From assembly GCF_055900595.2 (NCBI RefSeq), contig NZ_CM148325.1: DNA of 64,000 nucleotides; one strand, written 5' to 3'. Made by a program: the position numbers and the translations under genes. The notes below the pieces were generated by a model, which made no database searches, was not told the DNA's origin, and saw only the letters and a program-made list of their open reading frames with translations. Numbering within the stretch: the first letter of the stretch is position 1; every line of letters begins with the position of its first letter. Shown piece by piece: positions 2,456 to 26,160 of this stretch.

Positions 2456-3154
2456 ATGCAGGATATTCCACAGGAAACACATCATGAGACGACACGCCTC
2501 ACTCAGTCAGCCCAGGTGGTGCTCTGGGAAATCGATCTGACAGAGGTCGGTGGTGAACGTTATTTTTTCTGTAATGAGCAGAACGAAAAAGGTGAGCCGG
2601 TTACCTGGCAGGGGCGGCAGTATCAGGCATACCCCATTCAGGGGACGGGATTTGAACTGAACGGCAAGGGCAGTGCTGCCCGTCCGACACTGACGGTTTC
2701 TAACCTGCACGGAATGGTCACCGGGATGGCGGAAGACCTGCAGAGTCTGGTCGGCGGAACGGTGGTCAGGCGTAAGGTTTACGCCCGTTTTCTGGATGCG
2801 GTGAACTTCGTCAACGGAAACAGTGACGCCGATCCGGAGCAGGAGGTGATCAGCCGCTGGCGCATCGAGCAGTGCAGCGAACTGAGCGCGGTCAGTGCCT
2901 CTTTTGTACTGTCCACGCCGACGGAAACGGACGGTGCTGTTTTTCCGGGACGTATTATGCTGGCCAACACCTGCACCTGGACCTATCGCGGCGATGAGTG
3001 CGGTTATAGCGGTCCGGCGGTCGCGGATGAATATGATCAGCCGACGTCCGATATCACGAAGGATAAATGCAGCAAATGCCTGAGCGGCTGTAAGTTCCGC
3101 AATAACGTCGGCAACTTTGGCGGTTTTCTTTCCATTCACAAACTTTCGCAGTAA
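2456..3154 (+). CDS. L: phage minor tail protein L
   Basis: 232 aa, MQDIPQETHHETTRLTQS..., lambda gpL-like with C-terminal Cys cluster. Confidence 0.9.
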   Translation: MQDIPQETHHETTRLTQSAQVVLWEIDLTEVGGERYFFCNEQNEKGEPVTWQGRQYQAYPIQGTGFELNGKGSAARPTLTVSNLHGMVTGMAEDLQSLVGGTVVRRKVYARFLDAVNFVNGNSDADPEQEVISRWRIEQCSELSAVSASFVLSTPTETDGAVFPGRIMLANTCTWTYRGDECGYSGPAVADEYDQPTSDITKDKCSKCLSGCKFRNNVGNFGGFLSIHKLSQ

Positions 3155-3158
3155 TTCC

Positions 3159-8622: not shown

Positions 8623-9330
8623 GTGCACAGAAAACCCCCAGCTAGGCTGGGGGTTCCGGAAAGCTTTCAGCTTTGAGCCAGTTATTAAAACCCCTTTTGA
8701 TTTGTTAAAACACCTTGCGGTCTGGCAACTGCAAGTGTCAAACAAGAAATCAAAAGGGGGTCCCAATGGGGGACGAAAAGAGCTTAGCGCACACCCGCTG
8801 GAACTGTAAATATCACATAGTTTTTGCGCCGAAATACCGAAGACTGGCGTTTTACGGAGAGAAGCGTAGGGCGATAGGCAGTATTTTGAGAAAGCTGTGT
8901 GAGTGGAAAAGCGTACGGATTCTGGAAGCAGAGTGCTGCGCAGATCATATCCATATGCTTGTGGAAATCCCACCCAAAATGAGCGTATCCGGCTTTATGG
9001 GATATCTGAAAGGGAAAAGCAGTCTGATGCTTTACGAGCAGTTTGGGGATTTGAAATTCAAATACAGAAACAGGGAGTTCTGGTGCCGAGGGTACTATGT
9101 CGATACGGTGGGTAAGAACACGGCGAAGATACAGGACTACATAAAGCACCAGCTTGAAGAGGATAAAATGGGGGAGCAGTTATCGATTCCATATCCGGGC
9201 AGCCCGTTTACGGGCCGTAAGTAACGAAGTTGAATGCAAATGTCAGATCGTATGCGCCTGTTAGGGCGCGGCTGGTAACAGAGCCTTACAGGCGCATTTG
9301 AAAAACCTCCGGCTATGCCGGAGGATATTT
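8623..9330 (+). mobile_element. IS200 insertion sequence (IS200/IS605 family); ends approximate
   Basis: Contains a tnpA matching IS200 Y1 transposase; left-end hairpin CCCCCAGC-tagg-CTGGGGG upstream of tnpA; ~0.7 kb, the expected IS200 size. Confidence 0.8.
8766..9224 (+). CDS. tnpA: IS200 transposase TnpA (HUH/Y1)
   Basis: 152 aa MGDEKSLAHTRWNCKYHIVFAPKYRR...HIHMLVEIPPK, the HUH motif and IS200 TnpA signature. Confidence 0.95.
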   Translation: MGDEKSLAHTRWNCKYHIVFAPKYRRLAFYGEKRRAIGSILRKLCEWKSVRILEAECCADHIHMLVEIPPKMSVSGFMGYLKGKSSLMLYEQFGDLKFKYRNREFWCRGYYVDTVGKNTAKIQDYIKHQLEEDKMGEQLSIPYPGSPFTGRK

Positions 9331-23387: not shown

Positions 23388-23641
23388 AAATAAATTAGCC
23401 TGATGGCCTGAACTACTGGGCCATTAGGGTATTGGGTTATGCTATTTGTCATCCTTTTAATTGCGATAATGCAGAGTTAATTTATAGAATTAAACACTTT
23501 TTTATCTGCTGATTTTGTTTTAAATCACAATGTTATCTCAGAGATGGCTCATAACTTCGGATTTCTATGAAAATATTGACGTAATTTTGCTTTTCTCTCG
23601 TTAGAATAGCGCGCACAAGGAACTGTGAAAAAGGAGTGGCA

Positions 23642-24532
23642 ATGATCAAGAAGACAACGGAAATTGATGCCATCTTGTTAAATCTCAATAAGGCTATCGA
23701 TGCCCACTACCAGTGGCTGGTAAGTATGTTTCACAGCGTGGTCGCGAGAGATGCCAGTAAGCCAGAAATAACGGATAACCATTCTTATGGACTGTGCCAG
23801 TTTGGTCGGTGGATTGATCATCTGGGGCCACTCGATAACGATGAATTACCTTACGTTCGGCTAATGGATTCTGCCCATCAACATATGCATAACTGTGGTC
23901 GGGAATTAATGCTGGCTATTGTTGAAAATCACTGGCAGGACGCGCATTTCGACGCCTTTCAGGAAGGGTTGCTTTCTTTTACTGCGGCATTAACCGATTA
24001 CAAAATTTATTTGCTGACGATCCGTAGCAATATGGATGTTTTGACGGGTTTGCCGGGTCGTCGGGTTCTTGATGAATCCTTTGATCATCAGTTACGCAAC
24101 GCTGAACCTCTGAATCTTTATTTAATGTTGTTGGATATTGACCGATTTAAATTGGTTAATGATACCTACGGGCATTTAATCGGCGATGTAGTATTACGCA
24201 CCCTGGCAACTTACTTAGCCAGTTGGACGCGCGATTACGAAACGGTTTATCGCTACGGTGGCGAAGAATTTATCATTATTGTGAAAGCGGCTAATGATGA
24301 AGAAGCATGTCGTGCAGGTGTCAGAATTTGCCAGTTAGTCGATAACCATGCCATCACACATTCTGAAGGGCATATCAACATTACCGTGACTGCTGGTGTG
24401 AGTCGTGCATTTCCTGAAGAGCCTCTGGATGTGGTCATTGGAAAAGCGGACCGGGCAATGTATGAGGGTAAGCAAACCGGAAGAAATCGCTGTATGTTTA
24501 TTGACGAACAAAACGTGATTAACCGAGTTTAA
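23642..24532 (+). CDS. dgcZ: zinc-sensing diguanylate cyclase DgcZ (YdeH)
   Basis: 296 aa MIKKTTEIDAILLNL... with GGEEF motif (RYGGEEF); CZB domain N-terminal. Confidence 0.95.
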   Translation: MIKKTTEIDAILLNLNKAIDAHYQWLVSMFHSVVARDASKPEITDNHSYGLCQFGRWIDHLGPLDNDELPYVRLMDSAHQHMHNCGRELMLAIVENHWQDAHFDAFQEGLLSFTAALTDYKIYLLTIRSNMDVLTGLPGRRVLDESFDHQLRNAEPLNLYLMLLDIDRFKLVNDTYGHLIGDVVLRTLATYLASWTRDYETVYRYGGEEFIIIVKAANDEEACRAGVRICQLVDNHAITHSEGHINITVTAGVSRAFPEEPLDVVIGKADRAMYEGKQTGRNRCMFIDEQNVINRV

Positions 24533-24574
24533 GCTCCGTTTAACATTCATTGAGAAAACTGATGCTACTGTGTC

Positions 24575-24675
24575 AACGATCCGTTATCAGTGCAGGAAAA
24601 TGCCTGTTAGCGTAAAAGCAAAACACAAATCTATCCATGCAAGCATTCACCGCCGGTTTACTGGCGGTTTTTTTT
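24575..24675 (+). ncRNA. mgrR: candidate MgrR small RNA (PhoP-regulated); start and strand are inferred
   Basis: Intergenic dgcZ-mgtS position matches the K-12 mgrR locus; strong plus-strand terminator (ACCGCCGG-uuua-CUGGCGGU plus U7) at 24649-24675; PhoP-box-like GTTTAA-n5-CATTGA near 24538-24554. Confidence 0.4.
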
Positions 24676-24683
24676 CGCCGTCA

Positions 24684-24722
24684 TAAAAATCAGGCCCCTT
24701 GTACACAGTTGTAACAAGGGGC
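24684..24722 (-). terminator. rho-independent terminator downstream of mgtS
   Basis: GGCCCCTTG...CAAGGGGCC hairpin with a U-run on the minus transcript. Confidence 0.6.
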
Positions 24723-24750
24723 CGGTTAGGTGAGGGATTATCTCCGTTCA

Positions 24751-24846
24751 TTAGTCATCCCATTTGTGGCTGAAATACGCGGCCAGAAAACCAGAAAATA
24801 AAATTATTCCCAGTACGGCCATAAAAACATTCATATTACCCAGCAT
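24751..24846 (-). CDS. mgtS: small membrane protein MgtS (YneM), 31 aa
   Basis: Minus strand translates exactly to MLGNMNVFMAVLGIILFSGFLAAYFSHKWDD*; RBS GGAGG upstream; too short for the ORF track. Confidence 0.85.
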   Translation of the reverse strand: MLGNMNVFMAVLGIILFSGFLAAYFSHKWDD

Positions 24847-24972
24847 TATTTGCCTCCGTTTATGGTGTGGTGTGTTTCCTCGCTTACCTTAATTTTCATC
24901 TCAATGAGAAAGATATTAGCAGAGGTAACCTAAACGAAGGCTGAATTAAATTTTTATTGTGTTCGACTTAAA

Positions 24973-26160
24973 TCAACAAAGCGCGGGCTGCCCCCACGGT
25001 CTTGCACGAATCCCTTTTAACATCAGCACCCACGCAGCAATGATCACCAACGCTAAGATGATAAACAGCGAGGAAGGCGGCAGGCTGGTTAGCACTACGC
25101 CACTCACTAATGGGTTAATCGCCGCACCAAGCCAGCCTAAAGACTGAGCGGAAAAATAGCTGGCTTTCATTCCTGCCGGCGCAATATGGTCAATCAACAT
25201 ATACTCGCCCGGCGCATAAATGATTTCACCGACAGTAAATACCGCAGCTGACATACCCCACAATAGCAGGCTGTTGCCGGAAAAAATAAAACCGACCAGC
25301 CCAATGACGAAACAGAGGGTGCCTGCTGTCATCAGCGCGCGGATGTTAGCCGGGTTAAGGCGGCGGCCCACGGAATATTGCAACGTAACCACCATGGCAG
25401 CATTCACCGGAAGAACAACCGCGACCACCTTTTCGGCAAAATCCCCATCAGCAATCACCATCACATATTGTGAAATGCATGAAGCAAATGCGCCGCTAAC
25501 AAAAGAAGCCAGAAAACCAGAGCAGGTAAACCACAACAGTGCTTTATCTTGTAATAAAACTTTCGGCGACCAGACACTGCCTGTTTCCGTGGCGATGATT
25601 TTCTCGCTGCGCTTTACCCAAATTTGAATGAAAAGCATGGGAAACGCGGAACAGATAGCTGCCAGCCAAAAGGGCAGATTGATGCTCTGCATCACCAACA
25701 GCGTGCCGAGCGGCGGACCGATGGTCCAGCCAATGTTGAGCATGGTGTAGTTGATTGAGAAGATTTTCGTTTTGCTGGTGGACGAAAGATTGTCGGCAAA
25801 CCAGGCTTTCAACACGGTAGCAAAAACGGAATAGGCGCAGTTAATAAGGGCAAAAAAGAGCACCACCAGCGTCACGTTATTCACTAAAGGAATGGCAATA
25901 AAACCGCTAGCGAAGGCGGTAATTGCCAGTAACATATAGCGTTTCTTGTCGAACTTATCCGCCAGGATACCAAAACCGAGGCTAAAAACGACGCCAATAG
26001 TGAGCGCAATTGTCATCGCATAACCGATTAGATCGACACTCAGGCTGTACTGGCGACTCAAGTAAATGGTCATAAATGGCAGCGTAGCGCCGCGTCCGAT
26101 GGTTAATAACAACGACGAGGCAAGAAGGGCGCTGGTAGAGCGTCGTAGGGATAAGTTCAT
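24973..26160 (-). CDS. ydeE: MFS efflux transporter YdeE (dipeptide exporter)
   Basis: 395 aa, 12-TM MFS pattern; K-12 synteny between mgtS and eamA. Confidence 0.9.
   Translation of the reverse strand: MNLSLRRSTSALLASSLLLTIGRGATLPFMTIYLSRQYSLSVDLIGYAMTIALTIGVVFSLGFGILADKFDKKRYMLLAITAFASGFIAIPLVNNVTLVVLFFALINCAYSVFATVLKAWFADNLSSTSKTKIFSINYTMLNIGWTIGPPLGTLLVMQSINLPFWLAAICSAFPMLFIQIWVKRSEKIIATETGSVWSPKVLLQDKALLWFTCSGFLASFVSGAFASCISQYVMVIADGDFAEKVVAVVLPVNAAMVVTLQYSVGRRLNPANIRALMTAGTLCFVIGLVGFIFSGNSLLLWGMSAAVFTVGEIIYAPGEYMLIDHIAPAGMKASYFSAQSLGWLGAAINPLVSGVVLTSLPPSSLFIILALVIIAAWVLMLKGIRARPWGQPALC

Follow-up and report, generated by a model that had tools for sequence, protein, structure and literature searches.

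The spacer of 440 bp (24533-24972) that separates dgcZ (23636-24532, plus strand) from ydeE (24973-26160, minus strand) in a 64,000-nucleotide stretch of DNA, hereafter the window, raises the question of what it encodes, and both the length-thresholded ORF track and the RefSeq pipeline leave gaps here. A sequence-only reading had placed in it the small protein MgtS and, next to convergent terminators, the PhoP-regulated sRNA MgrR. Low Mg2+ activates PhoQ/PhoP, whereupon mgrR and mgtS, two genes that are transcribed convergently, are induced. Our analysis puts at roughly 97% the probability that the spacer is the Escherichia coli mgrR/mgtS-mgtT locus, consisting of two convergent PhoP-activated transcription units for coping with low magnesium. 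This locus is already known in full, and it is arranged here exactly as in K-12.

The spacer and its flanks were matched in 5,416 of 5,426 complete E. coli genomes at 95 to 100% identity, and the window is thus from E. coli. Over the spacer itself, identity reaches 99 to 100% in about 5,400 E. coli genomes. The locus corresponds to the reverse complement of K-12 1622646-1622914. Since positions 24480-25010 align with the reverse complement of K-12 without a gap over 531 columns (99% identical), K-12 coordinates can be transferred exactly, the window position being 1647492 minus the K-12 coordinate. The RefSeq records under the matched block annotate dgcZ, mgtT, mgtS, and ydeE, with the same placement of mgtS and mgtT in thousands of genomes; mgrR carries no annotation in the RefSeq PGAP records at this locus and is listed as an ncRNA in the curated K-12 record. 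The interval given by the sequence-only reading, 24533-24850, takes in mgrR with its promoter, the two terminators, and the coding sequence of mgtS. It ends 4 nt upstream of the mgtS ATG and therefore misses the ribosome-binding site, 5' UTR, and promoter of mgtS (24847-24947). That reading also left out the mgtT ORF, the mgtS promoter, and explicit coordinates for mgrR, which are omissions rather than errors. The features are collected in Table 1.

Table 1. Features of the dgcZ-ydeE spacer in window coordinates, with the basis of each assignment where one is given.
Feature	Position	Strand	Description	Basis
Putative PhoP box of mgrR	24537-24553	+	CGTTTA-ACATT-CATTGA	Conservation in 76-sequence alignment
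Extended -10 of mgrR	24563-24571	+	TGcTACTGT; TG 24563-24564, hexamer TACTGT 24566-24571	
mgrR (b4698)	24578-24675	+	98 nt, same strand as dgcZ	Ungapped K-12 alignment, 97/98 identical
MgrR 5' stem-loop	24582-24612	+		Fold
MgrR A-rich (ARN)5 stretch	24614-24629	+	Unpaired	Fold
MgrR seed, U55-A68	24632-24645	+	UAUCCAUGCAAGCA	
MgrR terminator hairpin	24649-24668	+		Terminator scan
MgrR U8 tail	24668-24675	+		
Spacer, annotated MgrR 3' end to mapped mgtS mRNA 3' end	24676-24687		12 bp	K-12 annotation and Term-seq
mgtS intrinsic terminator	24685-24723	-	Hairpin GGCCCCUUGUUAC...ACAAGGGGCC (24723-24693), then UGAUUUUUAU; U tract 24689-24685	Fold
mgtT (b4775)	24647-24751	-	34-aa ORF, MNGDNPSPNRPLVTTVYKGPDFYDGEKKPPVNRR	K-12 and RefSeq annotation
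mgtS (formerly yneM, b4599)	24751-24846	-	31-aa inner-membrane protein, MLGNMNVFMAVLGIILFSGFLAAYFSHKWDD; then tandem in-frame stop TAA TGA	
mgtS Shine-Dalgarno	24853-24857	-	GGAGG, 6 nt upstream of ATG; GGAG conserved across mgtS upstream regions	
mgtS promoter	24913-24947	-	Putative PhoP box AATTCA-GCCTT-CGTTTA (24947-24931), 12 bp, -10 TAATAT (24918-24913)	

Alignment with K-12 b4698 confirmed the predicted presence of MgrR, and the full Rfam model RF01407 (STnc560) was matched on the plus strand with 280.2 bits (gathering score 55, E = 4.9e-64). Position, strand, length, seed, A-rich stretch, terminator, and U8 tail are shared with the K-12 gene, and the putative PhoP box and the extended -10 are identical to it. 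The single difference is a substitution at nt 4 (24581; C in the window, T in K-12), which lies outside stem and seed and where C is commoner than T in other genera. In K-12, MgrR is a 98-nt Hfq-dependent class II sRNA that represses eptB and ygdQ via nt 55 to 68 (PMC6239178), and nuclease probing in the same work showed a stem-loop at either end of the RNA, an (ARN)5 stretch that is single stranded, and U55-A68 as the region that pairs. The fold of the window's sequence (z = -2.9), with a 5' stem-loop, an unpaired center, and a terminator, agrees with this probing. The seed is identical to that of K-12 and invariant in 76 homologs, and the alignment of these 76 sequences shows little or no variation in the terminator stem and U tail. 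RNAalifold recovered the terminator alone when applied to all 76 homologs, because the 5' stem-loop, whose sequence differs between clades, is misaligned between them. In a subalignment of 22 sequences from Escherichia, Salmonella, and Citrobacter, the 5' stem-loop was recovered, and 3 of its 11 pairs showed compensatory changes; a further compensated pair in the terminator stem brings the total to four. Judged by sequence and predicted structure, the architecture of a class II Hfq-binding RNA, an unpaired ARN-rich stretch and a terminator with poly(U), is present.

The minus strand encodes MgtS at the place where it had been read, and its 96-nt gene and the translated protein are both identical to K-12 b4599. 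The protein matches NCBIfam equivalog NF033842 with 80.6 bits (cutoff, 35) and Pfam PF22865 with 88.2 bits (cutoff, 27), in each case over residues 1 to 31 of 31. Together with the occurrence of the block in all but 10 of the complete genomes, these scores and that of Rfam argue that finding MgrR and MgtS here is not a matter of chance. Relative to K-12, the coding sequence, protein, Shine-Dalgarno sequence, 5' UTR, and -10 are the same, so that there is no difference in the gene; one substitution lies upstream of the putative PhoP box (24952). Outside a divergent Kluyvera-type group, synonymous changes in mgtS exceed nonsynonymous ones (for example, 13:2, 12:2, and 7:0), a substitution pattern indicating purifying selection on mgtS. 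Its 5' UTR lacks structure, folding no better than shuffled sequence (z = +1.6). It holds a purine-rich element (24872-24890, minus strand; AAGGTAAGCGAGGAAACAC), the core of which, AGGTAAGnGAGG, is conserved in most of the genera that carry mgtS and which could act to enhance translation, serve as a standby site, or bind a regulator.

The convergent terminators described by the sequence-only reading are likewise found, one on the plus strand with T8 and one on the minus strand with UGAUUUUUAU. The terminator scan missed the latter because of a bulge in its stem, and the hairpin was found by folding the minus strand. Transcript ends were taken from K-12 Term-seq data (PMC7815308, supplementary file 1), where the 3' nucleotide is position 51 of the printed 61-nt strings, as confirmed with the thrL entry. 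Two ends are reported there: 1622824 (minus strand of K-12; about 2.4 million reads) within mgrR and 1622804 (plus strand of K-12; about 2,600 reads) for the mgtS mRNA. They convert to 24668 (plus strand), the first U of the MgrR U8 tail, and to 24688 (minus strand), the second U of the mgtS U tract, and are thus 20 nt apart. From these converted ends, it follows that the MgrR and mgtS transcripts, if properly terminated, face each other without overlap. The dominant MgrR end lies at the first U past the terminator stem, 7 nt before the annotated end at 24675, a difference that could stem from trimming of the U tail or from peak calling.

At PhoP-activated promoters, such as those of mgtA and mgrB, a PhoP box replaces the -35 element. 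A scan with the sigma-70 consensus returned no full promoter for either mgrR or mgtS and no -35 consensus for mgrR, as expected of activator-dependent promoters that lack a -35 element. A scan of the whole window with the pattern KGTTTA-N5-KGTTTA, allowing up to three mismatches, gave 206 hits where 151 were expected and is not informative alone, so the boxes proposed here are supported by their position and conservation and not by the match itself. Upstream of mgrR, the conserved direct repeat GTTTA-N6-(A/G)TT(G/T)A, with GTTTA (24538-24542) and TT (24550-24551) at least 90% conserved in the 76-sequence Enterobacteriaceae alignment and variable flanks, defines a putative box that begins 5 nt past the stop codon of dgcZ, with 12 bp between its end and the -10 hexamer. 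The extended -10 has the consensus TGnTAnnnT (G43, T45, A46, and T50 invariant and T42 at least 90% conserved in the same alignment), and its hexamer ends 7 nt ahead of the annotated mgrR 5' end. The best local match of the scan, AGTTTA-AGCTC-CGTTTA (24526-24542), was rejected as the main mgrR box, since its upstream half is not conserved and it lies one helical turn too far from the -10. In E. coli, there are three hexamers in 11-bp phase in this region (24526-24553, plus strand), AGTTTA, CGTTTA, and CATTGA. Of these, AGTTTA overlaps the stop codon of dgcZ, and conservation in other genera extends to the remaining two only.

The putative mgtS box, which has four mismatches and was therefore missed by the pattern scan, was found through conservation. 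A conserved block, composed of (G/A)(G/A)TTCA-N5-TGTTTA, a 12-bp interval, and TAnTAT, is shared by 44 mgtS loci of several genera and by O157:H7. Like promoters of the mgtA and mgrB type, those of mgrR and mgtS have a (T/G)GTTTA-like direct repeat with an 11-bp period that ends 12 bp upstream of the -10; unlike in those promoters, each E. coli box here has one weak half-site (CATTGA in mgrR and AATTCA in mgtS). These half-sites fit the PhoP consensus at only three of six positions, so that the E. coli boxes are degenerate. From the spacing, we infer an mgtS start site near 24905. PhoQ-dependent reporter activity of the mgtS upstream region has been published; in PMC11429745, we found neither a mapped mgtS start site nor a statement on a PhoP box.

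The surroundings of the mgtS promoter vary between strains. In O157:H7, homology ends at window position 24946, the outer edge of the putative mgtS box, and an ftrA gene and a rhodanese-like gene, both absent from the window and from K-12, stand between mgtS and ydeE. The first base of the upstream half-site, across this junction (24946-24947), is A in the window and G in O157:H7. In E. whittamii, ydeE lies about 1.5 kb farther from mgtS than in the window. Within its last codons, ydeE holds a terminator-like hairpin, CGTGGGGGCAGCCCGCG and then CTTTGTTGAT (24982-24998, minus strand), which, from its sequence, could stop ydeE transcription just ahead of the mgtS promoter. Elsewhere in the window, a plus-strand match to Rfam RF01405 (STnc490; 8633-8756, 146 bits) is an IS200 end unrelated to the mgrR/mgtS locus: the 600 bp around it match an IS200/IS605-family transposase gene adjoining a gene for an Ail/Lom family outer-membrane protein and have a median of three copies per E. 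coli genome.

For a comparative view, genomes, one per species, were scanned for a 19-nt word that contains the seed. Of the 84 stretches returned, five were dropped as chance matches (Atopobium, two Moraxella, a Mycoplasmataceae genome, and a Gammaproteobacteria MAG), and the remaining 79 loci come from Enterobacteriaceae or Enterobacteriaceae-like contigs, 76 sequences of which form the alignment. In 44 of the 79 loci, mgrR has a convergent mgtS no more than about 260 nt away; these include the loci of Escherichia, Citrobacter, Salmonella, Kluyvera, Phytobacter, Kosakonia, Pluralibacter, and Yokenella. As dgcZ and ydeE are absent from most of these 44 loci, mgrR and mgtS behave as a linked module. 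The clade of Enterobacter, Lelliottia, and Leclercia has mgrR without mgtS. In Enterobacteriaceae bacterium RIT691, mgrR occurs twice, at 1402-1561 and 2996-3155 of the extracted locus (both on the minus strand), with a distance of about 1.6 kb; one copy has the conserved putative PhoP box and -10, and the other has a diverged upstream region. A contig labeled as a Caldithrix sp. MAG (SMXE01000224.1) carries mgrR together with MgtS (100% identical), MgtT in its K-12 form, and YdeE (99% identical); this contig is almost certainly a contaminant of the bin that comes from E. coli.

Against this background, other readings of the spacer can be weighed. The Rfam model has 214 positions and is matched from end to end (24544-24757, plus strand), so that the functional RNA might be taken to be this longer unit, with both hairpins and ending inside the mgtS stop, instead of the 98-nt MgrR. 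We regard this as very improbable. The model span overshoots the RNA on both sides: it begins 34 nt upstream of the annotated 5' end, including the conserved -10 and part of the putative PhoP box, and it runs on through the mgtS terminator, the second hairpin, whose U tract is on the minus strand and serves mgtS. A strong plus-strand terminator with U8 sits in the middle of the model, the dominant Term-seq end lies there as well, and MgrR is described as 98 nt in both the K-12 annotation and the literature. The 214-nt span should not stand as the MgrR transcript. That mgrR might instead lie on the minus strand or at other coordinates has next to nothing in its favor, as the curated K-12 annotation, the Rfam match, and Term-seq all indicate the plus strand, which alone has the U8 tail and the conserved upstream promoter; the plus strand is also the one that the sequence-only reading had inferred for MgrR, convergent with mgtS. 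Equally remote is the idea that the region holds just the terminators of dgcZ and ydeE plus a chance ORF of 31 codons. There are hairpins downstream of dgcZ, and chance ORFs of 20 to 40 codons are common (3.5 kb contained 57 ORFs of 20 aa or more), but ydeE ends at 24973 and has the terminator-like hairpin of its own described above, and mgtS has its own conserved promoter and Shine-Dalgarno sequence. MgtS is moreover conserved across genera with mostly synonymous change, accompanies mgrR where dgcZ and ydeE are absent, and scores far above the HMM cutoffs. The reading of the spacer as the mgrR/mgtS-mgtT locus is the one that we retain.

The standing of mgtT within this locus is a separate matter. 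The mgtT ATG and the mgtS TAA stop have an A in common (a TAATG junction at 24751), and the mgtT ORF traverses the terminator of mgtS and stops at the foot of that of mgrR, so that 29 bp (24647-24675) are antisense to mgrR. The overlap with mgtS, the 34-aa length, and the antisense overlap are the same in K-12, whereas the protein differs by V15T, owing to a pair of neighboring substitutions (24708-24709) within the hairpin loop of the mgtS terminator. In K-12, mgtT is translated and was found by ribosome profiling with tagging; it is PhoQP induced within an mgtS-mgtT operon, its protein is not membrane associated, and neither deletion nor overexpression gave a phenotype.

Could MgtT be a third functional product, a small protein kept by selection and not a by-product ORF? 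It has been detected by ribosome profiling, SPA tagging, and PIRT-seq, its induction in low Mg2+ depends on PhoQ, it has its own Pfam family (PF23498; 93.3 bits against a cutoff of 27), and an overlapping T(A/G)ATG start with an N-terminal MNGDNP..RPL is widespread. However, MgtT does not prove to be conserved as a protein, whether compared across genera or within Escherichia: the ORF ranges from 8 to 83 aa across genera, with an unrelated C terminus outside Escherichia, and within Escherichia nonsynonymous changes outnumber synonymous ones (5:1 and 6:1), where mgtS has zero to two nonsynonymous changes. The widespread features have other explanations, since the ATG falls in a tandem in-frame stop, TAA-TGA or TGA-TGA, which accounts for its conservation, and the RPLV residues are conserved as part of the terminator stem CGGCCCCTTGT. 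Furthermore, the final 41 nt of the ORF lie beyond the mapped 3' end of the mgtS mRNA (24688, with the stop at 24647), which means that full-length MgtT needs read-through of the mgtS terminator. Together with the lack of a phenotype and of membrane association, this makes a selected function for MgtT unlikely. The comparison of sequences points to mgtT being most likely a young by-product of ribosomes that reinitiate at the TAATG junction on read-through transcripts.

A 17-codon ORF upstream of mgtS (24846-24899, minus strand; ATG AAA ... AAA TAA, MKIKVSEETHHTINGGK) has a stop that overlaps the mgtS ATG, again as TAATG, so that three consecutive ORFs are joined in this way. It is probably the PIRT-seq entry CDS58, whose western signal was the weakest. 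O157:H7 and E. whittamii have ATA in place of its ATG, and E. albertii and Citrobacter lack this ATG; the upstream ORF is therefore not conserved even within Escherichia. The sequence comparisons suggest that mgtT and this E. coli-specific upstream ORF are evolutionarily unconstrained.

These observations fit a scheme that assumes for this strain, by analogy with K-12, the same expression, PhoP binding, Hfq binding, and target pairing. MgtS is needed for the accumulation of MgtA, an Mg2+ importer. Wang et al. are said to have found in 2017 that MgtS protects MgtA from FtsH. According to the title of Yin et al. as cited, MgtS and MgrR both modulate PitA. In this scheme, the PhoQ sensor would phosphorylate PhoP in low Mg2+, and both promoters would be activated, PhoP presumably acting via the conserved direct-repeat boxes that, 12 bp ahead of each -10, take over from a -35 element. 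MgrR would bind Hfq through its (ARN)5 stretch and U8 tail, and its nt 55 to 68 would pair with the 5' regions of eptB and ygdQ and lower their expression, and it would repress pitA as well. MgtS, which has a single membrane helix, would support MgtA accumulation and modulate the PitA phosphate symporter, and each transcript would stop at its own intrinsic terminator. Taken together, the roles of MgrR and MgtS imply that both products act to raise intracellular Mg2+.

The convergent layout opens the way for another hypothesis, to which we assign a low probability, namely, that the mgtS and mgrR transcripts are coupled in cis through antisense read-through. Over 24647-24675, read-through mgtS-mgtT transcripts would be perfectly antisense to the terminator and U tail of MgrR, and such read-through could titrate MgrR, destabilize it, or collide with the transcription of mgrR. 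On mgtS mRNA that ends at its usual terminator, ribosomes would reach a nonstop end within mgtT. If such coupling in cis were true, the convergent layout kept in the 44 loci could be regulatory and not an accident of position.

In conclusion, the value of these results is one of annotation hygiene only: a spacer of less than half a kilobase, in which gene tracks leave gaps, carries three characterized gene products of the PhoQ/PhoP magnesium response. To these, the comparative data add likely PhoP boxes, an extended -10, and the linkage of mgrR and mgtS as a module, with the current understanding of the system in E. coli being unchanged.
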